Numbered from the stretch's first letter, positions 3,882-24,014 are shown. The stretch is 64,000 nt of DNA from an uncultured Acidobacteriota bacterium (GCA_963712365.1 CAVQHO010000001.1:32608-96607), one strand, 5' to 3'. Notes: a model not told the origin generated them from the sequence alone. A program made the numbers and translations.

Positions 3882-3905
3882 CCGCCGCCGCGGGAGCGGC
3901 GGCGG
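3882..3905 (-). terminator. GC-rich hairpin downstream of the isomerase gene
   Basis: CCGCCGCCGC-GGGA-GCGGCGGCGG is a perfect 10-bp stem, 19 nt after the stop at 3924. The U-tract is weak. Confidence 0.4.
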
Positions 3906-3923
3906 CTGAGCACTATTCGCTTA

Positions 3924-4814
3924 TTACCAGCGTAGTTTCGCGAGGTAGTCGTAGCTGCCCTTGATGCTTTCGAGGGGCTGCTTCGGGTGATCGTGTTCCA
4001 CAATGTAGTGCTTGATTCCGGCTTTCTCTGACTGCGCGAAGATGCGCTTCCAGTCGATGATGCCGCTGCCTACTTCGGTCAGGTCGACAGTGTCGCCGAA
4101 ATTCTGCGAACCGCCCGTGGAAATCTTGGGAAGCGTCTTGACGTCTTTCACGTGTACAAGCGGGAAGCGCCCCGGGTAGGCATTGAAATACTTGAGCGGA
4201 TCGGTGCCGGTCGTGGTGATCCAGCAAAGATCCATTTCCATTTTCACCAGGTTGGCATCGCAAAGCTTGAGCAATTCGTCATAAGGGAGCTTGCCGTCGG
4301 TGGGCAGAAATTCGAACCAGTGATTGTGATAGCCGAACTGCATCCCGGCTTGTTTCGTCTGTTCTCCACACTTGTTGAACTTGTCCGCGGCCTGCTTCCA
4401 GATATCGGGGGATTTGCGTAGTTCCTCCGGAATCCAGGGGCAAATGACATACTCGAGACCGATAGCCTTCGAGAACTCAAGCATCGACGGGAACTTCTCG
4501 TCGAGTTCGTCATATTGAACGTGGGCGGCGGGAGCCTTCAGGCCGTTTTTGTCGAGGACTGCCTTCACCTGAGGCGCGGTATGGCCGAAGTATCCGGCAA
4601 ATTCGACTTCCTTGTAGCCGATCTGCGCGACCTTGGCGATCGTTCCTTCAAAGTCGTCCTTCATCAGATCGCGGACGGTATAGAGTTGCACGCCGACCTT
4701 GTTGATTTTGTGTTCGCCAGCGGCCCAGCCTAAGCGGCTGGTGATTAAAGTTCCCGCAGCGACCGCGGCTGCGGTCTCGAGAAATCTTCGTCGATTCATG
4801 GCATGAAAACTCAT
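3924..4814 (-). CDS. Sugar phosphate isomerase/epimerase (xylose isomerase-like TIM barrel), Tat-exported
   Basis: ORF 3924..4973. ATG at 4814 (or 4799) gives MSFHAMNRRRFLETAAAVAAGTL. Family-typical VGVQLYTVRD...IGYKEVEFAGYF. Confidence 0.85.
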   Translation of the reverse strand: MSFHAMNRRRFLETAAAVAAGTLITSRLGWAAGEHKINKVGVQLYTVRDLMKDDFEGTIAKVAQIGYKEVEFAGYFGHTAPQVKAVLDKNGLKAPAAHVQYDELDEKFPSMLEFSKAIGLEYVICPWIPEELRKSPDIWKQAADKFNKCGEQTKQAGMQFGYHNHWFEFLPTDGKLPYDELLKLCDANLVKMEMDLCWITTTGTDPLKYFNAYPGRFPLVHVKDVKTLPKISTGGSQNFGDTVDLTEVGSGIIDWKRIFAQSEKAGIKHYIVEHDHPKQPLESIKGSYDYLAKLRW

Positions 4815-4979
4815 GATGGCTTTCCTCCGTGGTTCCGTTGGGGCGGAAGTCAAATCCCGGAGCATTATACGCGGGCGGGCAGGTTTGAGCCGTGAGTTGA
4901 AAACTGTATGCGGATTCATCCGAGGGGCAGTCCCACGTTGAACAGGGGAGGACCACAGATCCTCCCCACGCACCGATCC

Positions 4980-5525
4980 TTACTTCGAACCCTCAACTTT
5001 CAAATTGTTCGTTACAGAAAAAACGTTGGGCACGCCATTCGCCCTAACGGTTACTAGATTTTTATCCGCTTCGCTGTCTACCACACCTTCGAGGGTAACG
5101 CGCCCGTTCTTCACGATTATTCGAATCGGCTTCTGTACGCCTAACGAATATTTCTCAAGAGCCGGATATCCGTAAATGGCGCGGAAAATTTGGATTCGAA
5201 TGCTATCGTCCATCGAAGAAGGTGGCAGTACCTCAATCTGGTTGTCGACCTTCTCAACTCCCTCAACGTGCTTTACAGCGTTCTCGGCGTCCGACTTCAA
5301 CGATGGACGAACAACTTGTCCCATCAAAGTGACCGTACCACCGTCAACCTTGAAGGCCAGGTTATCGAACACTCCGAAATAGGGCAGCATCAGCAATTCG
5401 TGCCGCACTTCCCGGGCAATGCGATCTTGCGGTTTTGACTGATCCTGCGTTGCATTCTGCGCCACGGATGTGACGGTGGCCAAGAACAAAAGGCTTAAAA
5501 AAACTACTAGTAATCTGGGTTTCAT
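4980..5525 (-). CDS. BON domain-containing exported protein (two BON repeats)
   Basis: Signal peptide MKPRLLVVFLSLLFLATVTSVAQ. Two repeats of the V..G.VTL.G.V......A....V..V.GV..V.N.I.V pattern. Confidence 0.8.
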   Translation of the reverse strand: MKPRLLVVFLSLLFLATVTSVAQNATQDQSKPQDRIAREVRHELLMLPYFGVFDNLAFKVDGGTVTLMGQVVRPSLKSDAENAVKHVEGVEKVDNQIEVLPPSSMDDSIRIQIFRAIYGYPALEKYSLGVQKPIRIIVKNGRVTLEGVVDSEADKNLVTVRANGVPNVFSVTNNLKVEGSK

Positions 5526-5672
5526 ACACTTTCTCCTTACTTTGCGCTTTTTAGTGGATGCACTTTTAGGCCGGATAGTTGGAAGTTTGAGTTACGCAAG
5601 TTCAAAAGACCTGCATCGCTGTCCACAATATTCAACCTCGGGATTGAGAATGGACTACGTACTACCAAATGC

Positions 5673-6332
5673 CTAGAGATAGGTCAGACTTAGTGCTAGA
5701 GATTTGCCGCGTCCAAGCAGATGGACATCTGCACAATTTCGTAAGAGCCAGTTGGCCCCTGCCTCTTCCAGGACCGGCTTTGGGACCGTGGTTGTAAAGG
5801 CAATCACTTTTGCGCCTGACTGCTTACCGGAACGCACTCCGGCTGGTACATCCTCAAAAACCACACAGTCGTTGGCCGAAAATCCGAGAAGGGCTGCGCC
5901 TTTCAGATATGGCTCAGGATGGGGCTTTCCATGCGTAATGTCGTTGGAGGTGATCATTTTCTGTGGCAACGGCAATCCTGCGGCGGCAATCCGTACCTCA
6001 GCTAGCGCGCGAGTGCAGGAGGTCACAATCGTCCACCGGGCCTGCGGAAGGCTGGTTAATAAATCGAGCGCCCCGGGTAGTGGAACCACTCCTTCCAAGT
6101 CTTCGATCTCGCGCCGTTCCACCTCTCGGTTCTCGGCCTCATGATCCGCGTTGGGCAGGTATTCGCGCACGGTCGTGAGGCTCGGCCTGCCGTGGGCTCG
6201 AGCGACTACTTCGTCCGGATTGAACCCGTGCTCGGTCGCCCATTTTCGCCAAACACGCGCCACGGCGGGTGTGGAGTTGATTAAGACGCCATCCAGATCA
6301 AAAAGCAGAGCGTCACAATGAACCTCGGTCAT
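5673..6332 (-). CDS. HAD-IA family hydrolase (sugar-phosphatase / beta-phosphoglucomutase-like)
   Basis: LFDLDGVLINS (motif I), HGKPHPEPYL and FEDVPAGVRSG. ATG at 6332 is preferred over the TTG at 6347. Confidence 0.85.
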   Translation of the reverse strand: MTEVHCDALLFDLDGVLINSTPAVARVWRKWATEHGFNPDEVVARAHGRPSLTTVREYLPNADHEAENREVERREIEDLEGVVPLPGALDLLTSLPQARWTIVTSCTRALAEVRIAAAGLPLPQKMITSNDITHGKPHPEPYLKGAALLGFSANDCVVFEDVPAGVRSGKQSGAKVIAFTTTVPKPVLEEAGANWLLRNCADVHLLGRGKSLALSLTYL

Positions 6333-6409
6333 CTGGTCGGCGTTCAAGGTGCCAGCGATTGTAAATCACCGCCTAGAACTCCTTGCAAGGTGCAGGCTTA
6401 GGCGAACTA

Positions 6410-6423
6410 GTGATGAATATCAC
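6410..6423. promoter_or_regulatory. Crp/Fnr-type palindrome GTGATGAATATCAC
   Basis: Perfect GTGAT-N4-ATCAC inverted repeat in the 477-bp gap between the HAD gene and the small Cys ORF/usp genes. Confidence 0.5.
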
Positions 6424-6477
6424 TCCGCTGAGTGCCTTGGGTCACCCCTCGCCAGACGATAGCGACATAGAATTTTT

Positions 6478-6801
6478 GTGTGGAGCAGAAGGACCTGCGC
6501 CGTGCCCTCGAAATGCGCGAATCCCGATCATTGCGAGCAGTTTCGATATCTGCCTCAGGGAAGACTTTTTCAGTTGGACTCGACTCCAGAAGTGCAAGCC
6601 GTGAGCAATGGTGCCCACGACGCTCTACATGAGCGATTTGGGTTGTGCGATCAGTGCTATAGGCGGCTGAAAGTCGTTTGGGACGGAACTCGGGCCACCA
6701 TCGTCAGCCTGCCGGTTGTCCGAGGCCACGAAAAAGGAAAGACACTTGCGACAAGACGATCTCGGAAACTCGGGGCGTCCGCCGGCCATCTGGTCCGATA
6801 A
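6478..6801 (+). CDS. Hypothetical small Cys-rich protein (possible zinc ribbon)
   Basis: ORF with a C-x5-C ... C-x2-C arrangement (KCANPDHCEQFRYLPQGRLFQL...FGLCDQCYRRLK). It ends 24 nt before the usp start. The start codon is uncertain (GTG at 6478). Confidence 0.4.
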   Translation: MWSRRTCAVPSKCANPDHCEQFRYLPQGRLFQLDSTPEVQAVSNGAHDALHERFGLCDQCYRRLKVVWDGTRATIVSLPVVRGHEKGKTLATRRSRKLGASAGHLVR

Positions 6802-6824
6802 CGCTGGCGGCATGGGAGGTGCCT

Positions 6825-7775
6825 ATGATCATTGAAGAAAGACAACTGCAAAGTGCGTCGGAGACTGTTCCTGTTTTCCGGCACATACTCGTTCCGGTGG
6901 ATTTCTCGTATCCGTCGCGCCGCGCTTTGGCCTTCGCAACGTCGCTGGCGCCGAAAGGTGCGCATTTGTCCGTCGCTCACGTCATGAACACGGACTGGCG
7001 CTATGAGATGCTTGAAAACCCTCCAGAAATTGACCTCGAACGTCACGACGCCAAGGAAAAGCTGAACTCGTTGGTCGGTGAGTTTGAGGAGGAGCGGAAG
7101 ATCGACAGCATTCTTGTGAGGCACGGGCCCATTGCACAAGCAATTCTGGCGCTTGCCAAAGAAGAATCGTCCGACTTGATTGTTATGGGTACACACGGAC
7201 GCGGCGGCCTTTCCAAGCTCGCTCTTGGGTCGGTTGCCGAAGAACTGCTGAGGAGCTCTTCTTCGCCCGTCCTGACAGTCGGACCGAAAGCTGAGATCAC
7301 ACCAGCTTGGCCCGTGTTCCAGACCATCCTCTTCGCTACCGATTTCGGCAGAGGCTCAACCGCCGCGCTGCCGCTCGCCCTGACTATTGCGTCGCGCTAC
7401 GAAGCGAAACTTATTTTGATGCACATGACTTCGCCGATACCAGCAGCCTCCGATAGCCTTGCCGCCTACGCCCCCGCCTCCGCTGCAGCCAACGAGTTGG
7501 AGGACTGGGAAACATGTTCGCGGAATCGCTCGCTGCAGGAGTTCAAACAATGGCTGCCTCGCCCAACCGGATTGGCACAAGAGCCTGAATACATCGTCGG
7601 CACTGAGTTCCTTTCGGACGCGATCCTGGAAGCAACGCATAAACGAAACATCGACCTCATCGTAATGGGTGCAAATAAAACGAGCGCACCTCGGCTTGCG
7701 GCGCACATCCCATGGACGGCTGTGCATGAGGTCGTGCACGATGCACCATGTCCGGTATTGACCGTCGCTGGATAA
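6825..7775 (+). CDS. Universal stress protein, tandem UspA domains
   Basis: ATG at 6825 is preceded by GGGAGG. Two Usp domains (ILVPVDFSYPS...DLIVMGTHGRGGLSKLALGSVAEELLRSSSSPVLTV and ILFATDFG...DLIVMGA...VHDAPCPVLTV). Confidence 0.85.
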   Translation: MIIEERQLQSASETVPVFRHILVPVDFSYPSRRALAFATSLAPKGAHLSVAHVMNTDWRYEMLENPPEIDLERHDAKEKLNSLVGEFEEERKIDSILVRHGPIAQAILALAKEESSDLIVMGTHGRGGLSKLALGSVAEELLRSSSSPVLTVGPKAEITPAWPVFQTILFATDFGRGSTAALPLALTIASRYEAKLILMHMTSPIPAASDSLAAYAPASAAANELEDWETCSRNRSLQEFKQWLPRPTGLAQEPEYIVGTEFLSDAILEATHKRNIDLIVMGANKTSAPRLAAHIPWTAVHEVVHDAPCPVLTVAG

Positions 7776-7795
7776 CAAACGGTGAAAACGACGTT

Positions 7796-8512
7796 TCAGG
7801 ACTGCACAATCTTTTCCAGCGCAGGACGATTGCGTATCAGAAGCGTTGAACCCTTGAGTTGCAGCAATTGTCGCTTCTTGAAATCGGAAAACAAGCGGCT
7901 CACGGTTTCACGGGTCGTGCCGATAATCTCAGCGATCTCTTCATGTGTGAGCGTCAACCTGACCTGAATCGATCCGTCACTCTGCACTGTTTTGCTTGAC
8001 CACGACAGCAACAGCTTGGCAAACTTTTCCGCCGGCGACGTGGCTAAACCCAAAGTCCGAATCTCTTCATAAGCCGTGTAGTAGTTGAGGCTGAGTTGTT
8101 CTGCTACGCGCAGCGCCACCTCGCCATGATCTTTGAGAAATTGCAGCAGCGATTCTCGCGGAATGAAATTAGCTTGGCCCGGCTCCATCATCTCGGCACT
8201 CACCTCATATGGGCGGTTGGAAACGACGGCGTTCAGGCCTAGCACATCTCCGCCTTCGGAGATTTTCGTGATGATCGTTTTTCCCTCGCGGGACGATGTA
8301 GAGAGTTTTGCTTTTCCCAGACACAGCAGGAATACGCCCCGGGGTTGCTGGCCTTCAATAAACAGCATGGCCCCCTTGGGGTAGACAGCGGTGGATTTTA
8401 TTTCGTTAAGGCGTTGTCCGGCGTGCACAGACAAGTTACAAAACAGATGCTCTTCTCTCACCGAACATGTAAGGCAGTTATCAAGAATATTTAGTCCGTA
8501 AGGGGCGCGCAT
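7796..8512 (-). CDS. Crp/Fnr family transcriptional regulator with N-terminal Cys cluster
   Basis: cNMP-binding beta-roll plus C-terminal HTH (LTHEEIAEIIGTTRETVSRLFSDFKK). N-terminal C-x2-C-x8-C (NCLTCSVREEHLFC) plus a Cys in FLLCLGK suggests an Fnr-like redox sensor. Confidence 0.9.
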   Translation of the reverse strand: MRAPYGLNILDNCLTCSVREEHLFCNLSVHAGQRLNEIKSTAVYPKGAMLFIEGQQPRGVFLLCLGKAKLSTSSREGKTIITKISEGGDVLGLNAVVSNRPYEVSAEMMEPGQANFIPRESLLQFLKDHGEVALRVAEQLSLNYYTAYEEIRTLGLATSPAEKFAKLLLSWSSKTVQSDGSIQVRLTLTHEEIAEIIGTTRETVSRLFSDFKKRQLLQLKGSTLLIRNRPALEKIVQS

Positions 8513-8559
8513 TACGCAGCACCTACCTTTCCAATGAATTGTAACTCCGAAAATTCGCG

Positions 8560-8607
8560 TGTGATTTGTGTCACGAGTGATCTAAATCACAGTTCACCGT
8601 GATCACA
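8560..8607. promoter_or_regulatory. Three adjacent Crp/Fnr-type palindromes in the crp / pat divergent region
   Basis: TGTGATTTGTGTCAC (8560-8574), GTGATCTAAATCAC (8577-8590) and GTGATCAC (8599-8606). Confidence 0.55.
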
Positions 8608-8694
8608 AGTACCGCGTTTCTAGGTGTGCAGCGTCAGCACAGCAGCGCCTTCCTGTCTATGCAAGAATGAAAAGCTGAGGAACCGAGGCGGCAA

Positions 8695-11446
8695 GTGAGC
8701 ACCACTCCAGATTCGCGAACGCAACCGGCAGACGACGGGTCAGTGATCGCACGCTCACGGCCAGCCAGTCTGGATTCTTTTTTCTGTCCCCGCTCAGTGG
8801 CGCTCATCGGCGCAACCGATCGTCCTGGAACCGTCGGATGGAGCGTCTTATCAAATCTTCTGGAAAGTAAATCTCCGCTCGCGATCTATCCCATTACTCC
8901 GACCCATGAAAAGGTCATGGGGATCGATGCTTACAAACGCGTGACCCACATTCGCGGAGGCGCGGATCTGGCAATCGTTGTAACTCCCGCTAAGGTTGTG
9001 CCGCAAATTATTGGGGAGTGTGTGGATGCAGGTATCAAATATGCAGTGGTAATCTCCGCGGGCTTTCGCGAGCGCGGACCCGAGGGCTTAAATCTCGAAG
9101 ACGCGATCGCAAATCACTTGCAGCGCGGAAAGATGCGCTTGCTGGGTCCGAACTGCATGGGATTCATGAATCCAACCGTAGGGTTGAACGCAACATTTGC
9201 GAAATCCATGCCGGCTAAAGGCAGCGTCGCGTTCCTCAGTCAGAGTGGCGCGCTTGAAACAGCGATTCTGGACTGGAGCCTTCGCGAACACGTAGGTTTC
9301 AGCGCAATCGTCTCTACTGGATCGATGCTCGACATAGGGTGGGGCGATCTTATCTATCACTTTGGGAACGATCCGCACACAAAAAGCATCCTGGTTTACA
9401 TGGAGTCGGTGGGAGATGCCCGATCATTCCTATCGGCCGCTCGCGAGATCGCACTGAGTAAGCCCATCATCGTTATAAAGGCTGGAAGGTCGGAAGCCGG
9501 ATCGCGTGCAGCCGCGTCTCACACAGGGGCCATGACCGGAAGTGATGAGGTTCTCGAGGCCGCCTTCCGGCGTTGCGGCATTTTGCGCGTCCACAACCTG
9601 GCGGATCTTTTTTATATGGCAGAGGTGTTGAGCAAGCAGCCACGGCCGCGGGGACCACGGCTCAGCATAGTGACCAATGCCGGCGGCCCGGGAGTTCTCG
9701 CCACTGATGCCCTCTTGGCCAATGGCGGTGAGCTGGCCGCCCTCTCAGCCCAAACCATAGAAGCCTTGAATGGATGCCTTCCTGCTCATTGGAGCCACAG
9801 CAACCCTGTTGACGTTTTGGCCGACACGGACGCAGAGCGATACGCCAAAACCATCGAGATCGTCTCCGAAGATCCCGGCGCCGACGGATTGCTTGCCATC
9901 ATCGCGCCGCAGGGTCTGGCCGATCCCACCAAAGTCGCGCAGCAAATATCTAAGTACGCTCACAGCACGACCAAGCCAATCATCGCGAGTTGGATGGGCG
10001 GCGATGGCGTTGCGGAAGGCACCGCAGATCTCAATACGGCGGGAATCGCAACATTCTCATATCCCGACACTGCGGCGCGAGCGTTCACTTACATGTGGCG
10101 TTATACCTACAATCTGCGCGGACTGTATGAAACGCCTTCGCTGGTGGAAGAAACGGAGCCGTCCGAGAATTCACGACATGAGGCAAGCGCCATGCTCCAA
10201 CGAGCGCGCGATTCGGGCCGAACGCTGCTGAACGAGTTCGACTCGAAACAGATCCTCGTAGCGTACGGTATCCCGGTTGTCCAAACCTGTGCGGCGTTCA
10301 CAGAAGAAGATGCAATAGCCAAGGCGACAGAAACTGGGTTTCCCGTTGCGGTAAAACTCCTGTCGAACACCATCGCCCACAAGACGGATGTCGATGGGGT
10401 GTGGTTGAATCTGCAGAATCCCGAGCAGGTTAGAGACGCCTTCCGCTCGATTCAGATTTCGGTGGCAAGCAAACGAGGAGCGGATCACTTCGGCGGCGTC
10501 ACCGTGCAGCCGATGATACGGCGCGATGGATACGAACTCATATTCGGGAGCACGGTCGATCCGCAATTTGGTCCTGTGATTTTGTTCGGATCTGGCGGAA
10601 TCATGGCCGAAGTCTATCGGGACTACGCCATCGCCTTGCCTCCACTCAATACCACGCTGGCTCAGCGCCTGATCGAACAGACGCACATTCATAGAGCGTT
10701 GAAAGGCGTGCGCGGCCGCAAGGCGGTGAATATTCCCGAACTGCAAAAGCTGCTCGTGCGTTTCAGCCAGCTTGTTCTCGACCAACCTTGGATAAAAGAG
10801 ATCGACGTGAATCCGTTGCAGGCGGCAGAGGATCAATTCATCGCCCTCGATGCACGCATTGTCATCCACGATTCTTCGATGACGGCGGATCGGCTGCCGC
10901 GTCCATCGATCCGTCCATATCCCTCTCAATATGTATGGCAAACGCAACTAAAAAATGGAACCTCCGTCACCATCCGGCCGATTCGCCCCGAGGACGAACC
11001 ACTGATGGCGCAATTTCACACCACGCTTTCGGAACGCAGCGTCTACCTTCGCTATTTTTGTTCGTTAAGCCTGACGGCGAGAGTGGAGCACGATCGCCTC
11101 GCGCGGATTTGTTTTGCGGGATACGATCGAGGCTTCGCGCTGGTGGCCGAACACTATGAATCCGCGTAGCAGATCACCTGAAATTTTAGGTGTGGCCCGT
11201 TTCAGCGCAATCAATCGCGTGGAGGCCGAAGCCGCCGTTATGGTTTCCGATCAATGGCAGGGTCGTGGGCTGGGAACGGAACTAATGGCAGGACTTGGGC
11301 GCGTTGCGAAAGCTGAGAAATTCCAGCGACTCTCAGGAGAAATCCTGCGTGACAATCTGGCCACACAAGCCATTTTCAAGAAGATCGGATTTCACTTCAG
11401 GGCCACCGAAGACCCCACTTCGATATCGGCGTTTCTCGATCTTTAG
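8695..11446 (+). pseudogene. Pat-like bifunctional ADP-forming acetate--CoA ligase family / GNAT protein acetyltransferase, one frame disruption
   Basis: GTG at 8695. CoA-binding domain (SVALIGATDRPGTVG), succinyl-CoA-synthetase-like and ATP-grasp domains, then a GNAT domain. The GNAT is split between ORF 8695..11169 (..YDRGFALVAEHYESA*) and ORF 11114..11446 (..PEILGVARFS...QWQGRGLGTELM). The frame change lies near 11155-11170. Confidence 0.8.
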
Positions 11447-11519
11447 CGATGCTTCGGTCGGTATCCCCAAAAACTTTTAGCAAGTAGATTCCCACAGTGA
11501 TAGTGGTGGGCGAGGCGCA

Positions 11520-11972
11520 CTATGCGATCGGCGCGGGATGCGAGATCTCCAATTGCGGCTCGAACTTGAGATTCGTTCCCAGGGCGCGGGAGACGAGGCA
11601 GAGCTTCTCAGCTCGCTTCAAAAGTTCGAGTGCCCGGTCCCGATCTTCAGCCGTTGCAATCTTCAAATTCGGGCGGACGACGATCTGCGTAAAGCTGTAG
11701 CCAGAATCGACCCTTCGCACCGTGCCGCTCGCCTCAACCTGCAAATCGGTGAAATCGAACTGAGCTCCGCCTGCGAGCGCACGTACGGTTGTCGTGTAGC
11801 AACCCGCCACCGCGGCCAGTAGAAGTTCCTCGGGCGTCCATCGGCCCTCAAGACCGCCAAATTCCATGGGGGCGGTGAAATGAATGGCATTGGGGGCAGA
11901 ATCGGATTTGGCCAATCCAGTGCGCCCGGAGGTCCACCAAGCTGCCACTCGATATGCGTGTTCTTCACTCAT
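11520..11972 (-). CDS. OsmC/Ohr family peroxiredoxin-like protein
   Basis: 150 aa. PEELLLAAVAGCYTTT and LCLVSRAL carry the two conserved Cys of the OsmC fold. Confidence 0.85.
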   Translation of the reverse strand: MSEEHAYRVAAWWTSGRTGLAKSDSAPNAIHFTAPMEFGGLEGRWTPEELLLAAVAGCYTTTVRALAGGAQFDFTDLQVEASGTVRRVDSGYSFTQIVVRPNLKIATAEDRDRALELLKRAEKLCLVSRALGTNLKFEPQLEISHPAPIA

Positions 11973-12050
11973 AGATCTCCCTCGCTTCCGGGTTCCCGTG
12001 CTGTTCCATGCGCTGACGTTTGATTTTTTACTCCGTATTCTGCGACGGGT

Positions 12051-12437
12051 CTAAGCTGCACCCTCTGCTGATGTGAGGCCGCGCTCTCGCTCTATCTTCT
12101 TAATCTGATTGCGGAGCCATGTTTCCAGGGCCTGTTCCATTTCTTTCTGACTCCCGGTTCGGTAAAGATCCTCCATCGTCACTCCCTCTTTCGTCAGAGG
12201 AATAAAACGGCAAGGGATGTCCGCTTTTTCTTGCCCTTCTGGCACAAAATCCGCAAGGAGGCACTCATCGCATCGATTCGGATGCAAGGGATCACAGAAG
12301 TTCGGACAGATCGGGGAATCTTCAAAGATCGCCGGCGCACGCCATGGAGCACGAGGGGAACGTCCGTAACCCCCATCCAGCAGGAAACTCAATTCAAACC
12401 TGAGGATGTCCAGAATATCGCGTTTATCTTGAGCCAT
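12051..12437 (-). CDS. Hypothetical Cys-rich protein
   Basis: 128 aa. The Cys pattern is C-x3-C-x8-C-x2-C and then a further Cys (SPICPNFCDPLHPNRCDECLL...IPCRF). Palindromes lie 70-170 bp upstream. I recognise no family. Confidence 0.6.
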   Translation of the reverse strand: MAQDKRDILDILRFELSFLLDGGYGRSPRAPWRAPAIFEDSPICPNFCDPLHPNRCDECLLADFVPEGQEKADIPCRFIPLTKEGVTMEDLYRTGSQKEMEQALETWLRNQIKKIERERGLTSAEGAA

Positions 12438-12507
12438 AGGGCACCTCGATGGGTGTCAGCATGCCAAAGAAGAGGGGAAAGCACAGTACAGATGATCACG
12501 GGGACAA

Positions 12508-12521
12508 GTGATTTCGATCAC
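12508..12521. promoter_or_regulatory. Crp/Fnr-type palindrome GTGATTTCGATCAC
   Basis: Perfect GTGAT-N4-ATCAC, 71 bp upstream of the 12437 start. Confidence 0.5.
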
Positions 12522-12593
12522 AGCGCCGATGATGTAAACCGCAATGATTCCCTTGAAGTGACCCGATTTTGCGGCTTTTCCGAAACATGAGCC

Positions 12594-12609
12594 TGTGATC
12601 AAGATCACA
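12594..12609. promoter_or_regulatory. Crp/Fnr-type palindrome TGTGATCAAGATCACA
   Basis: Perfect 16-bp palindrome of the TGTGA-N6-TCACA type. A weaker GCGATCGAAATCAC follows at 12617-12630. Confidence 0.55.
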
Positions 12610-12747
12610 TGCATCCGCGATCGAAATCACCGAGCCTCTTCCTGCGGCCCAGCTAACGTCAAACGATTTCGGCGCCCGGATGACGCCAGCCCAAGAACAA
12701 AGATGTTGAACAGGTGCGATCGCAGGGGTAATGCCCGAAATGTGGGC

Positions 12748-12761
12748 GTGATTCTCGTCAC
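12748..12761. promoter_or_regulatory. Degenerate Crp/Fnr-type site GTGATTCTCGTCAC
   Basis: One mismatch to GTGAT-N4-ATCAC. A further degenerate copy, GTGATATCGATGTC, lies at 12912-12925, about 40 bp before the cytochrome ATG. Confidence 0.35.
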
Positions 12762-12963
12762 AAATGGGGGTGACGCATGGCATAGGTCCACTTCAGTCCG
12801 CGTGTGATCCTACGCCTGCGAGTGAGGTCACTGGGACCGGGACGGAAGCACGATTTGCGCAATCGGATTTCAGGACATGTAGCCGTCACCAGCTCTCTTG
12901 ATCCCTGCGCAGTGATATCGATGTCGTGCACAAAACAAATTTCGTTTCCGGAGGAAGTTACAG

Positions 12964-13284
12964 ATGAGGCATATTTCGTTTCGAGTGGGATCGATCGCTC
13001 TGATGGCGTTCTGTTTGACTTCAGGCTTCGCATCCTCTGCCTTGCCAGGATGCCGCCACCACCTACAAAGCAAAGTGCGCCATGTGCCACGGAGCTGACG
13101 GCAAAGGCGGCAAGATGGGGACCCGCGATTTCGGATCGGCTGAAGTGAAGGCCGAAAGCGACGCTCAATTGACCGAGATCATCACCAAAGGTAAGGCGCC
13201 GAAGATGCCCGCCTACGGTGAAAAGTTGAAAGAGACGGAGATCAAAGAATTGGTCATTCTTACTTCGCGGTCATGGCCAAGTAA
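12964..13284 (+). pseudogene. Monoheme class I c-type cytochrome, frame-disrupted
   Basis: ATG at 12964 gives the signal peptide MRHISFRVGSIALMAFCLTSGFASSA. The next frame carries ..QDAATTYKAKCAMCHGADGKG...KMPAYGEKLKETEIKELV. The frame changes near 13040. A probable second change near 13258 gives the end ..YFAVMAK* (TAA 13282-13284). The 3' end is uncertain. Confidence 0.55.
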
Positions 13285-13343
13285 GCGGTCGAGGCGGCGA
13301 ATCCAGCCGGCCGGAGTCGATTCGAAGATCGGTGGGCGAGAGC

Positions 13344-15340
13344 ATGTTCGCGCGAACAACACGGAGACAAGTTGCGTCTGGAATCGCTCTCACCCTCTTT
13401 TTTACGCTGAATTCAGATGCGCGGCGGCAAAGAAAGAACCTACCTAAGCCTACCGCGGACGAGTGCCTTGCCTGTCACAGTGACGCCACCCTAACTCACG
13501 ACGTCGGCGGCAAGCCAGTGAGCCTGCATGTCGATCCGCAAGCTTTCAAGGACTCGATCCACGGAAGCATGTTCACATGCGTGGACTGCCACACCGATGT
13601 GAAGAGTTCGCCCCACGAAACCACGCCTAGGAAAATCAGCTGCGCGACTTGTCATGCTGACCAGCAGGCTGCGTACGATCGCAGCTTCCATGGCAAATCG
13701 GTCCAGGCTGGCAACCTGAAGGCCGCCACTTGTGTGGATTGCCACGGCGGCCCTCACGAATTGCTGCCGGCGAGCGATCCGAAAGTCTCGAGTCAATCAC
13801 GCCAACATTCCTGCGACTTGTGGCGCGTGTCACAGCCAGAAGTTCGTCATGCAGGATGGCGGCCAGAGCGCGCAGATGGTCGCGTCGTATGCGGAGAGCG
13901 TGCATGGTCATGCCGTGGCCGCTGGTTCGGAGAAAGCAGCTGTCTGTACGGATTGCCATGGCGCCCACGAGATCCTCGACGCCAGAGATTCGAAGTCTCC
14001 GATATTCAAGTTCAATGTGCCGCTGACCTGCGGAAAATGTCACGACACCATCTCGAAAGAATTTCAGCAAAGCATCCACGGAACAGCCGTCGCCCGAGGT
14101 AACTGGCAAGCGCCGGTGTGCACTGATTGTCACGGCATCCATTCGATTAAGGCTCACACAGATCCGAACTCCCCCGTTTCAGCACAAAACATCGCGCAGG
14201 CAACTTGCGCCCGTTGTCATGAAGGCGTTCGGCTCTCGCAGGAATTCGGCATCGAAGGGCGCCGCGACATCGACCTATCTTGCTAGTTATCACGGCCTCG
14301 CGTCCCGCATGGGTTCTCAGGTCGTCGCCAACTGCGCCAGTTGCCACGGCACCCACAGCATTTTCCCATCCGAGCGATCCGCGATCAACGATCAACAGCG
14401 CTAATCTCGCCCGAACTTGCGGGCAGTGTCATCCTGGGGTAACAGAGAAGTTCACTGCCGCCAAAGTTCATGTCGATGCGCCGCTCTCCGCTGATGTCGG
14501 CAGTAAAGCGGTTCGCTGGATTCGGAGCTTCTACTCAGCATGATCGCCATGGTGATCGGCGGCATGCTGCTGCACAACCTAATCATCTGGCGATCCAAGA
14601 TTATTGCCCGGCGCAAATTGCAGCAAAACTTCGTGACTCGAATGCCCCTGCGCTTCCGTTGGCAGCATGCTGCCCTGCTGACCAGTTTCTTCACCCTTGT
14701 ACTGACTGGATTCGCATTGAAGTTTCCCGGCTCGTGGTTCGACGCGCTGCTGGGAATGACGAGCACCTGCGGCATCTGCTGCATCGCGTCGCGGCTATGG
14801 TGCTGATCGGCGTGAGCTTCTACCATATCTTCGACATTGCCTTCACCCGCGAAGGCCGCAAACTGGTTCGCGACTTGTTCCCCACACTAGACGATGCCCG
14901 GGGCGCGTGGCAGAATGTCGCCTACTACCTGGGCTTGAGTTCCAGCAAGCCGGAGTTTCCGCGGTTCAGCTTACGCAGAAAAAGCGGAATATTGGGCTCT
15001 GGTGTGGGGCATGATCGTCATGGCCGTCACCGGCATCATGCTGTGGGCCAAGGTTTTCTTCGGAAACCATGTACCCCGATGGTGGCTTGATATCGCGACC
15101 GCTGTTCACTTCTACGAAGCGATTCTGGCGACTCTCGCGATTTTCGTCTGGCATTTCTATCAGGTGTTCTTTGACCCCGATGTATATCCGATGAACTGGG
15201 CTTGGTGGGACGGAAAGATGACGCTGCACCATTACCGCGAAGAGCATGGTTTGGACGAGAATCCGCAGATCCACTCCGCTGATGCGGTAAGCGAAAGAAA
15301 GAACGTCGAGAGCAGCAGGCGACGAAAGAGAACCGGCTGA
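13344..15340 (+). pseudogene. CbcL-like fusion of an 11-heme c-type cytochrome with an FdnI/HydC-type cytochrome b membrane domain, multiply frame-disrupted
   Basis: ORF fragments 13332..14102, 13732..14286, 14219..14404, 14280..14543, 14540..14806, 14470..15090 and 15002..15340 join colinearly. They give signal MFARTTRRQVASGIALTLFF and 11 CxxCH motifs (CLACH, CVDCH, CATCH, CVDCH, CGACH, CTDCH, CGKCH, CTDCH, CARCH, CASCH, CGQCH). TM helices follow (RFRWQHAALLTSFFTLVLTGFALKF; YAEKAEYWALVWGMIVMAVTGIMLW; HFYEAILATLAIFVWHFY). The frame changes near 13790, 14255, 14368, 14537, 14758 and 14968. Confidence 0.75.
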
Positions 15341-15348
15341 GGTCAATC

Positions 15349-16868
15349 ATGGACGCTGACAGAACTGCAGCTCCGATCGAGCAACGCCATCGCTTGCGAA
15401 TGCTTCTGCGAAATCCCATCAGTCTTGCCGGCGTCGCTCTAGCAATCGTCAGCGTGGCCAATATCTTCATATTCGTTCTGATCGATTTGATTGCGACCAA
15501 GGCGAGTCCCTACATCGGGATCCTGGCCTACATGGTGTCTCCGGGGTTCCTCGTGCTAGGCCTCTTGCTCATGGTCGCGGGAATTTTGCTTGAGCGCCGC
15601 AAGAAAGTCGTCGCTACCGACTTCTATCCGAAGATCGACCTGAATGATCGCGCTCAGCGCAGCGCTGTAATCTCATTTGCGACTTTCCTGATCGTCTTCG
15701 TCATGGTCAGCACGGCAGGCAGCTACAAGGCTTACGAATACACGGAGTCTGTCGCTTTTTGCGGACAGCTCTGCCACACAGTGATGAGTCCGGAGTACAC
15801 CGCTTATCAGCTTTCTCCGCATGCGCGCGTCGCTTGCGCCGAATGTCATGTCGGGAACCGGCGCAACCTGGTTTGTGAAATCGAAACTTTCAGGAAGCCG
15901 CCAGGTTTTCGCCGCAGCCTTCAATACCTTCCCACGCCCCATCCCCACGCCGGTGCACAACCTGCGTCCTGCGCAGGAGACCTGCGAACAGTGCCACTGG
16001 CCGAAGAAGTTTTACGGCGGACAGCTGAAAGTTTTCACGCATTATTCCAGCGATGAAAAGAACAGCATGCGACAAGTGAGGATGATCATCAAGACCGGCG
16101 GTGGCGATCCGGCTACAGGCGCTCCCGAAGGCATCCACTGGCACATGAACATCGCGAACAAGATCGACTACGTCGCTGCCGACGAAAAACGCCAGACGAT
16201 TCCCTACATTCACGTCGAGGATCAGCAAGGCCGAGTCACCGAGTATTACGCGAAAGATTCAACACTCAACAAAGATCAGATCGCGAAGACTCCGCGTCAC
16301 CACATGGATTGTGTCGACTGCCACAACCGCCCCACTCATATCTATGTCTCTCCGGACCAGTCCGTCGATCAGTCTCTGCTGGCCCATCGCATCGATTCTT
16401 CCCTGCCATTTATCAAGCAGGAGGCCGTCACCGTGCTGACCGCAAGCTACCCGACCACGGATGCTGCGGTTCAGGGAATCGCAAAAGGGATGGAGGACTT
16501 CTACGAGAGCAAGTATCCTGATGCGGCCAAGACGAAACAATTGGAGATCCGTGACGCCGTCGCGGAAGTCCAACAAATCTTCAAACGCACCACATTCCCC
16601 GAGATGAAGTTAAATTGGCAGACTCATCCCAATAATCTCGGCCACTTTTATTACAACGGATGTTTTCGCTGCCACGACGGCCAGCATGTCAGCAACGACG
16701 GCAAAGTGATCAGCAAAGAGTGCAACCAGTGCCACACGTTGCTGCCCGAGCCAGGAACTGCGAGCGTGGCGTCGAATACACACGCCGTCCTTCCAGCATC
16801 CCGTCGACATCGGCGACCTGACACAAGTGAACTGCGCCGACTGCCACACTGGCGGAGTCGGGCCTTAA
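15349..16868 (+). pseudogene. ImcH-like inner-membrane 7-heme NapC/NirT-family cytochrome c, frame-disrupted
   Basis: ORFs 15349..16056 and 15821..16939 plus a third-frame tail FQHPVDIGDLTQVNCADCHTGGVGP* (TAA 16866-16868). Three N-terminal TM helices. Hemes CGQLCH, CAECH, CEQCH, CVDCH, CFRCH, CNQCH, CADCH. The frame changes near 15856 (extra A in GGGAACC) and near 16785. Confidence 0.75.
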
Positions 16869-16948
16869 CAGCAAGGCGTCGAACACTGGTGTCCCATCGA
16901 ATTCGCACCGACACGCTCATCTCTAAGCAGGGGGCATAGAATAGCGGC

Positions 16949-17823
16949 GTGAAAAACACGCGCCGCACCTCGCCAGACTTCTTTACCTTTCTTACAGTTG
17001 CGGCATCCACACTCGCGTTCATCGTTCTTTGTTCCGCGGTGACCCTCGGAGACGGCCCCAACCACGCCACGACCGCGGCGGATCGCCTCAATGAGCCGTG
17101 GTGGGCCGAACGTCACAAAGCGATTCTCGATTCCATCCAACACCATCCGGACGCACAACTCTTGATGATTGGCGACTCCATCACCAACAACTACGACAAG
17201 TCCCGGCCGCCGGATGAAAATTTCCTTCCCACCTGGCAGCAGTTCTACGAACCACGCAAGGCGCTCAATCTCGGATTCAGCGGCGACACCACTGCGCACG
17301 TTCTGTGGAGGATCAATCATGGCGAAGTCGACGGACTTCATCCCAAGGTCGCCATCGTCCTGATCGGCACCAACAACACCGGGCACGGAGACACCGCCGA
17401 GGAAACCGAGACCGGCATCGACGCCGTCATCACCGAGCTGGAAAATCGTCTGCCGGAGACGCATATCCTGCTTCTCGGCATTTTGCCGAGCGCGATCTCC
17501 GACAACAAAACGGAGCGCGATCAGCCGTCAACCGCTATCTGGCAACCTGCTACTCCGAAAACCCGCAGGTCACATATCTGGATATTGGATCCATCTTTTT
17601 CTCGAACGGAACGCTCAATACCTCACTCTTTTACGATCCCCGCCTGCCGCAGCATGGCAAGCCACTGCATCCCGACACCAACGGTCAGCGCATGATGGCG
17701 GAAGCCATCGAGCCCACTCTGGCGAGAATGGATGCACGACACACCGCAGCAACCTCTAGCATCCATGACCGACATCAACACGGCGGTGATTCCTGTCGAG
17801 CGCCTCGAACCCGACGTCTATGA
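16949..17823 (+). pseudogene. SGNH/GDSL hydrolase (PAF-acetylhydrolase-like esterase), frame-disrupted
   Basis: LLMIGDSITNNY (block I Ser), NLGFSGDTT, IVLIGTNN. After a frame change near 17520 it continues ..YLDIGSIF...PLHPDTNGQRMMAEAI (block V D..H-like). The 3' end overlaps the next gene and is uncertain. Confidence 0.7.
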
Positions 17824-18458
17824 CTGGTACGCCCGTCACCACGCGGAACTCGACCTGATCAAACACGTGCAACCGCGGGTCGTTCTGATCGGAGATTCCA
17901 TCACGCATTTCTGGGGAGGCATGCCGAACGGAACTACCGTCAACGGTGCTCAGGCATGGCAGAAAGTCTTCGGCGGCATGCCCGTCATCAACATGGGCTT
18001 CGGATGGGACCGCACGCAGAATGTGCTTATGGCGTCTTCGCCAGGGAGAATTCGACGGCCTTCATCCGCAATGGGTCGTACTGGCCATCGGAACCAACAA
18101 TCTGACCGGCACAGAGCACGCGCGCGCCAGCACTCCTCAGGAAATCGTCGAAGGCATCGACGCCATCTGCAAAGAAATCAGCCAGCGTTCACCTGAAACG
18201 CCACATCATTCTGATGGCGATCTTTCCACGCGGCGCGAAATCCGGCGATCCTCTGCGAGCTCCGATCCAGCAGACCAACAGCTTTTAGCCGAGCGCTTCG
18301 CCTACCAGCCCTCCATCACCTTTCTGGACATCGGCCAACAGTTCCTTGCACCAGATGGCTCTCTGCCCGCGGACCTGTTTCCCGACGGCACTCATCCCGC
18401 CCAAGCCGGATATCAGATCTGGGGAGACGCCCTGATCAAGGCAGGAATCAGGCCGTGA
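17732..18458 (+). pseudogene. Second SGNH/GDSL hydrolase, frame-disrupted
   Basis: YDWYARHH...VVLIGDSITHFW, NMGFGWDRTQNVLWRL, VVLAIGTNN, DGTHPAQAGYQIWGDAL. The frame changes near 18026. A compensating pair near 18200 and 18280 hides the stretch HIILMAIFPRGAKSGDPLRAPIQQTN. Confidence 0.7.
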
Positions 18459-18589
18459 TCTCCCGCCAAACCGCGAGACTCTGAAGTTGGCCCCACCCGC
18501 ATGTCGCTTTAAACGTTTCCCGAAAATGGATGTAACGATTTTTCGTGACCCATCACCATCGGGATGTGACCGGTGCCAGCAAACAGCGC

Positions 18590-20146
18590 ATGAAAACCAG
18601 AATCCTTATCTATATCCATCTTGCACTTGCAATTTCCGTTCCTGCGTTGTCCGCTCAAATGATCGACAACACGCAGGCCACAAGTACTGCGGCCGCGGGA
18701 ATCAACAAGTCCCTTGCCGATGAAATCGGCGCCGGCCGGGGCAGCATCCTCACTCCCGGATCGTCTCTCTACATCATCAAGCGCGATCCCTACCGATCGG
18801 TCCGCCGCGGACGCCAACTGTTCCAGCGGAAATTTACCCAGGCTCAAGGTCAAGGACCGAATGATGGCGACGGCAGTGGCGACATCAACACCAACCTCGC
18901 CATCGGCGCAGGGCTCACTGACAGCTGCGCGCTCTGCCACGGCCGTCCGCGCGGGTCCGCCGGCGCCGGAGGCGATGTCGTCACTCGCCCCGACAGCCGC
19001 GACGCTCCTCACCTGTTCGGCCTCGGCCTCCGCGAAATGCTCGCGGACGAGATGACCACAGACCTTCGCAGAACGCGTGATGCTGCGATCTCGGAAGCGA
19101 AAAAAGAGAAGAAATCCATAACTCTCGCCCTGTTCACCAAAGGAGTGCAGTTTGGAGCTATCACCGGAAATGCCGATGGCTCGGTCGACGCTTCCCACGT
19201 CGTCGGAGTAGATCCCGATCTGCGCGTGAAACCATTTTTCGCGGAGGGTTCTACCATTTCAATTCGCGAATTCGTCGTCGGAGCGCTTCACAAAGAGATG
19301 GGACTCGAAGCCTCATCCGATCCCGACCTGCTAAAAGCCAGCGCTGGGGCCCGTGTCGTAACTCCATCGGGCATGGTGCTCGACGGTTCGAAGGACAAGA
19401 TCTCGCCGCCTCCGGCTCCCGACGCTCAGAATGGAAACGAGGCCGATCCCGCTCTCGTCGATCACCTCGAGTTCTATCTTCTCAACTATTTCAAGCCCGC
19501 TCACCACGAGCAGACTCCCACGACCGACCAGGGTCGTGCCGTCTTCGGCAGAATCGGTTGCGCGTCCTGTCACGTCTCCGACATGACGATCAATCACGAC
19601 CGCCGGGTAGCCGACCTTGAAACTGCCTACGATCCAGTCAACGGCGTCTTCAACTCGATGTACGCGACCGCCACTACCCTCTACTACTCGAAGGACGACG
19701 GGAGCGGATATCCCGACCTCAAACTGCCGCTCGCACGTTCATTCCTCGTCAAAGAAATCTTCACCGACTTCAAACGCCATGACCTCGGCGCAAACTTCTA
19801 CGAGCGCAACTGGGACGGAACTCTACAAACTCAGTTCCTGACTCGGGCGCTTTGGGGCGTGGGAAGCACCGGACCTTATGGCCACGATGGACGCAGCATG
19901 ACTCTTCGCGACGTCATTCTTCGTCACGGTGGCGAAGCACTCTCTTCACGCAATAATTTCTCGGTATTGAAGCCGTCCGAACAAGATAGTTTGATCGCGT
20001 TCCTCAACTCGCTTGTCCTGTTCCCGCCCGACGATACTGCGTCGTCGCTTGACCCCGCTGATACCACCAAAACGAACTTTCCACAGTTCGCATACGGTAG
20101 CGTCAAGCTTACCGTGCTCTTCAACAATCCTACCGACCTCGAGTAG
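18590..20146 (+). CDS. DUF1111 family di-heme oxidoreductase (putative peroxidase / thiol oxidoreductase), exported
   Basis: ATG at 18590 gives the signal MKTRILIYIHLALAISVPALSAQ. Two heme motifs (CALCHGRPRGSAG, GCASCHVSD) in the DUF1111 arrangement. The reading frame is intact. Confidence 0.8.
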   Translation: MKTRILIYIHLALAISVPALSAQMIDNTQATSTAAAGINKSLADEIGAGRGSILTPGSSLYIIKRDPYRSVRRGRQLFQRKFTQAQGQGPNDGDGSGDINTNLAIGAGLTDSCALCHGRPRGSAGAGGDVVTRPDSRDAPHLFGLGLREMLADEMTTDLRRTRDAAISEAKKEKKSITLALFTKGVQFGAITGNADGSVDASHVVGVDPDLRVKPFFAEGSTISIREFVVGALHKEMGLEASSDPDLLKASAGARVVTPSGMVLDGSKDKISPPPAPDAQNGNEADPALVDHLEFYLLNYFKPAHHEQTPTTDQGRAVFGRIGCASCHVSDMTINHDRRVADLETAYDPVNGVFNSMYATATTLYYSKDDGSGYPDLKLPLARSFLVKEIFTDFKRHDLGANFYERNWDGTLQTQFLTRALWGVGSTGPYGHDGRSMTLRDVILRHGGEALSSRNNFSVLKPSEQDSLIAFLNSLVLFPPDDTASSLDPADTTKTNFPQFAYGSVKLTVLFNNPTDLE

Positions 20147-20167
20147 AAAGTAGCCCGATCAAACCCG

Positions 20168-20206
20168 CCCCACCCTTTGCATTCCGAAGGGTGGGGGTTC
20201 ATTTTT
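20168..20206 (+). terminator. Rho-independent terminator after the DUF1111 gene
   Basis: CCCCACCCTT-10 nt loop-AAGGGTGGGG followed by GTTCATTTTT. Confidence 0.7.
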
Positions 20207-20260
20207 GGACTGGATCCGGTCGTTCGGAAACCGTACATTATCAACTCCTTCCGCTCTCTG

Positions 20261-20276
20261 TGTGATTGCGATCACA
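20261..20276. promoter_or_regulatory. Crp/Fnr-type palindrome TGTGATTGCGATCACA upstream of PFOR
   Basis: Perfect 16-bp palindrome 110 bp before the PFOR ATG. A weaker TTGTAACTGGGATCAC lies at 20331-20346. Confidence 0.55.
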
Positions 20277-20373
20277 TCCTCCTGTGAACCTGCGCCCCGA
20301 CATCCACACTCCTCATCATTCATCCTGAAGTTGTAACTGGGATCACGCCAGTGGTTCCCGTCGAGACCTTTGA

Positions 20374-24014
<3,641 letters not shown>

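Follow-up and report, generated by a model that had tools for sequence, protein, structure and literature searches.

A conserved Terriglobales operon pairing CbcL-like and ImcH-like inner-membrane cytochromes: a probable low-oxygen quinol-to-periplasm electron module

The stretch of DNA analysed here, hereafter the window, spans 64,000 nucleotides (64 kb) from an uncultured Acidobacteriota bacterium (GCA_963712365.1, CAVQHO010000001.1:32608-96607). A six-frame reading of positions 12900-17000 reveals three cytochrome genes in tandem on its + strand at 12964-16868: a monoheme cytochrome c (gene 1), a CbcL-like multiheme protein (gene 2) and an ImcH-like protein (gene 3), each of which is split over several reading frames as the sequence stands. 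A six-frame scan of stop-free segments across the window counts 29 CxxCH motifs, 18 of them inside 12964-16868; segments shorter than 60 aa were skipped, and the motif at 16833 was thereby missed. Comparison with homologues identifies the source organism as an acidobacterium of the order Terriglobales. This agrees with a first-pass annotation made from the sequence alone, which had described an Acidobacteria-like organism with three adjacent heme-protein genes of these kinds, and all of the features that it described are present in the sequence. Our comparisons draw on a set of 82 loci, 80 of which come from a collection of species-representative genomes in which at least 585 stretches matched. 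Three loci are closest to the window: L001 (384 kb) and L002 are contigs fetched by protein identity, while L003 is from the nearest species-representative genome.

Gene 1 (12964..13284, + strand) is predicted from profiles and intact orthologues to encode a periplasmic monoheme class I cytochrome c of about 106 aa, with its CAMCH motif at nt 13076. It belongs to the Cytochrome_CBB3 family (Pfam PF13442, E = 6e-14), and profile searches show weak resemblance to c6, c551 and the C-terminal domain of CcoP. L001, L002 and L003 each hold an intact 106-aa orthologue. Within the larger locus set, an orthologue of gene 1 accompanies the CbcL-like/ImcH-like pair in the closest clade only (37 loci).

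Gene 2 (13344..15359, + strand), delimited by its domains and by frameshift-aware alignment, encodes a protein of 670 aa once its frame is corrected. Its 11 CxxCH motifs are spread over three reading frames at nt 13464-14418 and fall at residues 41-358 of the corrected protein, downstream of a predicted signal peptide. In addition to multiheme domains, Pfam detects the cytochrome b domain PF01292 (Ni_hydr_CYTB) at residues 434-611 (E = 7.1e-13), and there are further matches to the formate dehydrogenase gamma family (TIGR01583, E = 1.4e-9) and, weakly, to FdnI (PDB 1kqf_C, E = 0.0025-0.02). His18, His57, His155 and His169 of FdnI, which we take to be its heme-b ligands in 1KQF, align with His441, His480, His588 and His603 of gene 2. 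A crude Kyte-Doolittle scan gives five transmembrane (TM) helices, at around residues 397, 442, 480, 550 and 585, with no sixth helix at the C-terminus, and the hydropathy profile reads as one anchor past the heme domain followed by a four-helix bundle. The motif count, the PF01292 match and the aligned histidines all support the fusion of 11 CxxCH motifs to an FdnI/HydC-type b domain that had been read from the sequence at first pass. When compared to FdnI/HydC itself (PDB 1kqf chain C), the four-helix diheme b bundle is shared, whereas gene 2 adds an N-terminal TM helix and carries an 11-heme periplasmic domain instead of a docked dehydrogenase.

The CbcL/MtrH/MtoC family as published is broad, with 3-23 CX2CH motifs, lengths of 416-1034 aa and mostly six TM helices, a few members having five or four (Zhong & Shi 2018, PMC6295460). 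Gene 2 has the general features of this family, namely an N-terminal multiheme c domain, a HydC/FdnI-like b domain and the b-heme histidines. Within it, the CbcL orthologue group of Geobacter and Desulfuromonas is characterized by nine hemes and about 615-620 aa, and CbcL (GSU0274) has 619 aa, hemes at positions 34, 57, 82, 105, 129, 158, 186, 229 and 257, and six predicted TM helices (PMC6295460). Comparing gene 2 with GSU0274 by published position tables in place of an alignment, as we also do below for GSU3259, we find the same fusion of a periplasmic multiheme c domain to a HydC/FdnI-type diheme b domain and a similar spacing of the five hemes nearest the membrane (30, 29, 42, 28 in gene 2 versus 29, 28, 43, 28 in CbcL), which fits CbcL and not MtoC. 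The differences are that gene 2 has 11 hemes, 670 aa and 5 predicted TM helices versus 9, 619 aa and 6, and that common spacing is confined to the last five hemes; toward the N-terminus the spacing diverges, and a tetraheme unit is apparently duplicated in gene 2. The CbcL architecture proposed at first pass stands for the overall layout and the proximal hemes. These features place gene 2 in the broad CbcL/MtrH/MtoC family and would not make it a strict CbcL orthologue. Its acidobacterial type is represented by neither of the two acidobacterial proteins in the published table of the family, and the 19-heme acidobacterial SbA3 entry opens with the spacing of gene 2 (36, 21, 30, 28, 45, 28, 30).

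Gene 3 (15349..16868, + strand; stop codon TAA at 16866-16868), delimited by profiles and frameshift-aware alignment, is predicted to encode a menaquinol dehydrogenase-type heptaheme cytochrome of the ImcH family, with 505 aa after correction and three TM helices at residues 27-45, 63-81 and 106-124 in a hydropathy scan. Its heme motifs are CGQLCH at nt 15760 and six CxxCH at nt 15835, 15983, 16310, 16661, 16721 and 16833, corresponding to residues 138 (CX3CH), 163, 212, 321, 438, 458 and 495. Pfam detects c7/c3 domains and, over the third helix and first hemes (residues 107-196), the NapC/NirT domain PF03264 (E = 1.7e-11). ImcH proteins are described as having three N-terminal TM helices, an atypical CX3CH motif beside the membrane domain, typically six CX2CH motifs and 495-519 aa, and the G. 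sulfurreducens protein (GSU3259) has 507 aa, hemes at positions 131/132, 156, 205, 311, 428, 448 and 486, and TM helices at 13-35, 45-67 and 100-122 (PMC6295460). Every published sequence feature of the family is found in gene 3, including the TM count, the CX3CH and six CX2CH motifs, the length, the spacing and the NapC/NirT homology. In the comparison with GSU3259, the likeness extends to the position of CX3CH by TM3, the length (505 versus 507 aa), the NapC/NirT homology of the TM3/first-heme region and the heme spacing (25, 49, 109, 117, 20, 37 versus 24/25, 49, 106, 117, 20, 38). The ImcH architecture assigned at first pass, with seven hemes, three TM helices and a CGQLCH start, is thus recovered at 505 aa in place of the estimated ~506. 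What differs is the setting, in that imcH of G. sulfurreducens stands at its own locus, whereas gene 3 is translationally coupled to a CbcL-type gene in an operon with a leading monoheme c and Crp/Fnr-type sites.

An intact gene 3 homologue (P0001, 94% identical) was searched exhaustively against 1.84 billion cluster representatives, with 833 clusters (50% identity) matching at E <= 1e-30. A spacing of 25, 49, ~102-114, ~117, 20, ~36-46 is common to the best 60 of the 150 listed representatives and, because the heme fingerprint of gene 3 recurs in these top representatives, we consider gene 3 to be an ordinary ImcH-family member. The Geobacter spacing (25, 49, 106, 117, 20, 38) is absent among the 150 best 50%-identity cluster representatives, and the ImcH clade that carries it therefore probably scores below ~311 bits against P0001; no Geobacter names occur among the cluster members of the ten representatives that were looked up. 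ImcH homologues have been noted in Acidobacteria since 2014 (Levar, PMC4251993), and 19 have been published, including Koribacter Acid345_2712, A. capsulatum ACP_0476 and Solibacter Acid_0432 (PMC6295460). A tblastn search of plasmids for the reference homologues found nothing, and the PDB holds no ImcH or CbcL structure, giving weak matches to NrfH and FdnI only.

The two large genes are tightly coupled. After frame correction, the TGA stop of gene 2 (15357-15359) lies beyond the ATG of gene 3 (15349), such that the genes overlap by 11 nt. The spacing of 8 nt given at first pass arose because the last frameshift of gene 2 had been left uncorrected, and intact relatives show the same overlap, which is exactly 11 nt in 25 loci. 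A CbcL-like gene lies immediately 5' of an ImcH-like gene in 70 of the 82 loci, and 58 of these 70 paired loci have exactly 11 CxxCH in the CbcL-like gene. Close homologues of the two large proteins are abundant (8000 and 7958 matches). For each protein, the top 120 are intact, with identities of 79-94% and lengths of 487-517 aa for gene 3 and 644-686 aa for gene 2. The named sources are mostly metagenome-assembled genomes (MAGs) of Terriglobales, Ca. Sulfotelmatobacter or Ca. Acidoferrum, and the pair is also found in Thermoanaerobaculia, Blastocatellia and MAGs labelled Nitrospirota and Methylomirabilota. Adjacency of the two genes is the rule in Acidobacteriota, and the island is not peculiar to this window; the operon is a routine one, widespread in the phylum and built from known families. 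The separate imcH and cbcL loci of G. sulfurreducens are not general even for the Geobacter-type genes, because in a Syntrophus MAG these bear adjacent locus tags (imcH A2X92_08560 and cbcL A2X92_08565; PMC6295460).

Gene order is likewise conserved around the operon. The window and L001-L003 have in common a Crp regulator, an ADP-forming acetyl-CoA synthetase, OsmC, a divergent gene for a hypothetical 128-aa protein, the cytochrome c, CbcL-like and ImcH-like genes, a tandem GDSL lipase and, further on, pyruvate:ferredoxin oxidoreductase (PFOR). L003 (MAG MFD06298.bin.1.191, CAWGBW01) is 95% identical to the window in the amino acid sequence of gene 3 and 83.8% identical in nucleotide sequence over window positions 9339-22877. 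All of the syntenic genes are intact in L001, L002 and L003.

The frame disruptions that the first-pass annotation had seen in all three genes amount to 11 breaks. Frameshift-aware alignment of intact homologues (P0121, P0123, P0001 and P0003) to the DNA places seven single-base indels in gene 2 (extra bases at 13779, 14266, 14372, 14971 and ~15311; missing bases at ~14536 and ~14760) and two extra bases in gene 3 (15853 and ~16781), and gene 1 is shifted at ~13045 and near 13255. Single-base corrections alone restore open frames of 670 aa (gene 2) and 505 aa (gene 3) with no internal stop. Taken as given, the eleven disruptions would describe a true pseudogene cluster, with genes 1-3 really inactivated and no full-length product expressed. 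However, gene 2 and gene 3 are under strong purifying selection, with dN/dS values relative to L002 of 0.074 and 0.038, respectively, equal to those of intact flanking genes (0.015-0.087), and the defects are confined to single-base indels, with no nonsense substitutions or larger deletions. They are also regional: the contiguous stretch 11100-23700 (12.6 kb) contains at least 30 single-base indels including those of genes 1-3, with the same kind of defect in the acetyl-CoA synthetase (1, at 11155), the GDSL lipase (6) and PFOR (12, at 20386-24011), while long open reading frames (ORFs) outside 11.1-23.7 kb are intact. The independently assembled relatives are intact, and the CbcL-like gene is similarly broken in other MAG loci (L022, L028, L030, L047 and L080). 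Because dN/dS is low, the breaks are of the single-base type only and they are regionally confined, we judge that they are most likely local errors of a noisy assembly and not gene decay, and real pseudogenisation, which we rejected on these grounds, appears quite improbable. Further frameshifts considered at 37.9-39.7 and 41.9-43.9 kb were rejected, as the ORFs there hold different complete domains (argC, argB, argH and GNAT) and represent separate intact genes with upstream run-on; an overlapping same-strand ORF group at 31.3-34.8 kb gave too few matches in the frameshift check.

Upstream of gene 1, the dense array of Crp/Fnr-type sites reported at first pass is borne out both by enrichment and by conservation across loci. 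The palindrome GTGA-N6-TCAC occurs 8 times in the window versus 1.07 expected, a number reached in 0 of 100 shuffles, while the classical FNR box TTGAT-N4-ATCAA shows no enrichment (3 versus 1.94 expected in the window). Three exact sites and two near-matches fall in the 526 nt that separate gene 1 from the divergent 128-aa gene. One perfect GTGAT-N4-ATCAC palindrome, GTGATTTCGATCAC at 12508..12521, keeps its position in L001 and L002, as do Crp/Fnr-type sites in this region more generally. Motif scanning and alignment of the loci further identify the palindrome GTGATCAAGATCAC at 12595..12608, which lies inside TGTGATCAAGATCACA, and the site GCGATCGAAATCAC at 12617..12630, which has one mismatch. 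At 12748..12761, GTGATTCTCGTCAC has one mismatch to GTGAT-N4-ATCAC, is an exact GTGA-N6-TCAC and is kept in all three aligned loci; the remaining near-match to GTGAT-N4-ATCAC is at 12912. Between these last two, a 26-nt block, GCGTGTGATCCTACGCCTGCGAGTGA (12800..12825), is identical in the window, L002 and L001 amid a region that is ~79% conserved overall, and is possibly a promoter or operator; it has no Rfam family match, and an Rfam scan of the upstream region gave a single chance microRNA hit. Over 75 loci, GTGAT-N4-ATCAC with at most one mismatch is 12x denser in the 600 nt 5' of the module (2.03 versus 0.17 per kb). In 12000-18700, a sigma-70 promoter scan returned no sites, and terminator-like hits were not above chance (9 versus 6.0 expected). 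The 128-aa protein on the other side of this operator-rich intergenic region is Cys-rich, is encoded at 12051-12437 (- strand) divergently from the operon, has no Pfam or NCBIfam match and is present in 18 related loci.

A candidate regulator is encoded nearby at 7796..8512 (- strand) and is syntenic in L001. This 238-aa Crp/Fnr-family protein has an N-terminal C-x2-C-x8-C motif reminiscent of the Fe-S cluster ligands of Fnr, and it probably acts on the GTGAT-N4-ATCAC sites; Fnr-like regulators adjoin the module in 33 loci, often in tandem. The other sites in the window lie at 6410 (5' of the gene for a universal stress protein, Usp), at 8561 and 8577 (in the gap between the regulator and the acetyl-CoA synthetase gene) and at 20262 (5' of PFOR). 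With palindromic sites 5' and a candidate regulator nearby, the operon fits membership in a Crp/Fnr regulon, and the shared motif suggests one low-oxygen regulon linking fermentation genes with the cytochrome operon.

In some relatives, the inner-membrane module is clustered with genes of an outer-membrane conduit. A Ca. Sulfotelmatobacter MAG (L074) encodes at 2147-7512, in order, a 327-aa decaheme protein, an MtrB_PioB porin (E = 3e-80), a gene 1 orthologue and an ImcH-like protein, with Crp regulator and synthetase genes nearby, and L077 has MtrA-like, MtrB_PioB porin (E = 3e-96), CbcL-like and ImcH-like genes in order at 45-7482. In L027 and L078, the C-terminal end of an MtrB-like gene is found at the locus edge, and seven further loci have an unclassified 720-990-aa ORF at the porin position, in 6/7 cases after an MtrA-like decaheme-type gene. 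L074, L077 and probably L027 and L078 thus resemble MtrAB/MtoAB/PioAB systems in clustering the module with a decaheme protein and an MtrB_PioB porin, as in betaproteobacterial mto/mtr clusters, where mtoC/mtrH is clustered with conduit genes in the same way. The 2018 survey of these families found no mtrAB adjoining imcH (PMC6295460), and L074 and L077 add this link to its picture. The window itself differs from the MtrAB/MtoAB/PioAB arrangement in that it has no decaheme or porin genes, and tblastn with the MtrA-like and MtrB-like proteins of L074 gave no hit above 80 bits in it.

Other relatives bear on the question of a b-type cytochrome partner for the ImcH-like protein. Natural fusions of a PF01292 cytochrome b with a complete ImcH-like protein occur in two unrelated cluster representatives, P0303 (734 aa) and P0320 (771 aa), which come from very different lineages as judged by sequence composition. 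In L065 (3075-7506), the FdnI-type fusion is replaced by genes for a PetB-type cytochrome b and a 9-heme cytochrome c directly 5' of the ImcH-like gene, suggesting that the b-cytochrome partner may be exchangeable. Next to the module, 39 loci have a gene for an AhbD-like heme b synthase of the radical-SAM type (TIGR04545, 474 bits versus a cut-off of 500) and 20 have one for a 284-aa membrane protein that matches no NCBIfam family. Both are absent from the window, in which their place is taken by OsmC and the 128-aa gene. In the relatives, the AhbD-like and 284-aa genes are placed at ~2100-3400 (- strand) in L004-L028 and at ~7600-9900 (+ strand) in L030-L080.

From the observed operon architectures, their conservation, the coupling of the genes and the operator array, we propose the following route for electrons. 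Low oxygen would activate the Fnr-like regulator, and the operon would be transcribed along with the fermentative genes (PFOR and acetyl-CoA synthetase). Menaquinol oxidation and a requirement for acceptors above about -0.1 V are described for ImcH (PMC4251993; bioRxiv 10.1101/2023.05.03.539133), and recombinant Geobacter ImcH releases protons to the periplasm and reduces PpcA (bioRxiv 10.1101/2023.05.03.539133). The ImcH-like protein would oxidize menaquinol at an NrfH-like site on the periplasmic face, while the CbcL-like protein would carry electrons from the quinone pool through its two b hemes into an 11-heme periplasmic wire. The two would be made together, probably as a pair or complex, and their genetic coupling suggests that they act together. 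Electrons would then pass to periplasmic c-type cytochromes, with the gene 1 product as the first carrier, and the final sink would most likely be extracellular, in the form of Fe(III), Mn(IV) or humic quinones. Electrons would leave through a porin-cytochrome conduit whose genes lie at another place in the genome; in some relatives, such genes adjoin the module. Overall, we consider it likely that the three genes form a conserved Terriglobales operon for a low-oxygen quinol-to-periplasm module, that its sink is most likely extracellular and that its frame breaks are most likely errors. The compact quinol-to-periplasm island of the first-pass annotation holds in its family assignments and general function, as judged by domains, topology and heme motifs, and its further suggestion of extracellular electron transfer is plausible from the adjacent MtrA/MtrB-type genes of relatives but finds no conduit within the 64 kb of the window.

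Several observations weigh against this reading. Neither an outer-membrane conduit nor a terminal reductase is encoded in the window, and in the closest clade the operon neighbours OsmC, the 128-aa protein and the GDSL lipase are unrelated to electron transfer. The gene 1 product is a class I cytochrome c, and proteins of this type normally donate electrons to terminal oxidases or periplasmic reductases. Neither fusion protein has a b domain with significant similarity to that of gene 2 (BLASTP E = 0.2-0.3), and for this reason the fusions speak for a b-cytochrome partnership at the level of the family only. Relatives of CbcL/MtoC are found among Fe(III) reducers and Fe(II) oxidizers alike (PMC6295460), and electron flow in either direction would be compatible with this. 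Finally, the literature searched yielded no functional test in any acidobacterium.

Some of these same observations would be accommodated by a role confined to the periplasm or the aerobic chain, in which the module is a low-oxygen menaquinol:cytochrome c oxidoreductase analogous to complex III and gene 1 feeds a high-affinity oxidase, a periplasmic reductase or a peroxidase. Fnr/FixK-type control, as seen here, is typical of microaerobic respiratory genes, the gene 1 product belongs to the Cytochrome_CBB3/c6/c551-type class I family, a putative DHOR-type peroxidase is encoded 1.7 kb downstream (18545-20146), and both the conduit-free window and the restriction of the monoheme c to the 37 loci of the closest clade would fit. 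However, the window already has an Alternative Complex III-like cluster (56.2-61.3 kb), and in L074 the cytochrome c and ImcH-like genes lie directly 3' of MtrA/MtrB genes. PFOR and the ADP-forming acetyl-CoA synthetase share the operator motif and an anaerobic heme synthase lies nearby in relatives, which favours anoxia over microoxic respiration. The hemes of Geobacter ImcH, moreover, are of low potential (-358 to -150 mV; bioRxiv 10.1101/2023.05.03.539133). On balance, we regard the periplasmic role as unlikely, though it deserves to be kept in mind.

Reversal of the flow seems far less probable. A CbcL-like protein working like the MtoC/MtrH of Fe(II) oxidizers would take electrons from periplasmic cytochromes and pass them to the quinone pool, their source being Fe(II) outside the cell or reduced humics. 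MtrB_PioB-family porins, such as those in L074 and L077, serve both electron directions, and a class I cytochrome c of relatively high potential would suit an oxidative pathway. Fe(II) oxidizers have CbcL/MtoC/MtrH homologues, and the family is thought to be bidirectional; however, ImcH homologues have so far been found in reducers only and implicated only in quinol oxidation (PMC6295460). The proximal heme spacing of gene 2 also points to CbcL over MtoC, and the regulon partners are fermentative or anaerobic (PFOR, acetyl-CoA synthetase and the AhbD-like protein). We see still less reason to assign gene 3 to an unrelated multiheme system, either an NrfH/NapC/CymA-type reductase anchor or an Otr/Hao-type enzyme, a reading that we find scarcely credible. 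Its third TM helix and first hemes do match NrfH/NapC profiles (TIGR03153, E = 9.6e-15; PDB NrfH 2j7a_C, E = 4e-5), as expected of a homologous quinol module of one TM helix plus the first hemes, for which a quinol site on the periplasmic face would be predicted. However, the TIGR03153 score of 54.9 is far below the cut-off of 134.2, and NrfH/NapC/CymA proteins have one TM helix, four hemes and a catalytic partner, whereas gene 3 has two additional TM helices, seven hemes, the heme-spacing fingerprint of ImcH and no catalytic reductase gene in its operon or in the syntenic loci.

CbcL and ImcH are known from Geobacter as quinol oxidases that act independently and as alternatives to each other. 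A bolder extension of the quinol-to-periplasm module, which we put forward as speculative and rather doubtful, is that in most other lineages the CbcL-like and ImcH-like proteins combine as the two subunits of a single obligate complex, forming an electrogenic, energy-conserving quinol:cytochrome c loop switched by an Fnr-like regulator. In such a complex, a periplasmic NrfH-type quinol site may be wired via periplasmic hemes to the transmembrane diheme b domain with a quinone site at the cytoplasmic face. If true, this would be a previously unrecognised energy-conserving entry to extracellular electron transfer that is widespread in Terriglobales. Coupling of ImcH-type proteins with b cytochromes, together with the fusions, calls into question how general the Geobacter picture of two separate pathways is. 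Members of the Terriglobales rank with the most abundant bacteria of soil and peat and are usually seen as aerobic heterotrophs. Their operon joins both Geobacter-type classes of inner-membrane quinol dehydrogenase under Fnr-type sites and adjoins MtrAB-type conduits in some relatives; taken together, this suggests that an ability to discharge electrons onto iron minerals or humics once oxygen is exhausted is common among them, with a bearing on iron and carbon cycling in soils. The literature search found no paper on the CbcL-like/ImcH-like pair in Sulfotelmatobacter or Terriglobia. What our analysis adds to the literature searched is modest: a near-universal coupling of CbcL-type and ImcH-type genes outside Geobacter, their Fnr-type control and an occasional clustering with MtrAB-type genes. 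The copies in the window are ordinary members of such an operon, whose frame breaks are most likely sequence errors.

Two further redox loci are found in the window. The Alternative Complex III-like cluster lies at 55386-61301 (+ strand) and includes a GcvH-like Cys-rich protein (within 55386-61301, + strand), a pentaheme cytochrome (56228-56818, + strand), a molybdopterin-type subunit with a twin-arginine (Tat) signal (56760-58499, + strand), a 247-aa Cys-rich ORF that is of the 4Fe-4S ferredoxin type by eye only (58496-59239, + strand) and an NrfD-like membrane subunit (59232-60493, + strand), which is possibly broken near 60000. The putative peroxidase at 18545-20146 (+ strand), just past the GDSL gene on the 3' side of the operon, is a 533-aa diheme protein with a DHOR (di-haem oxidoreductase) domain.

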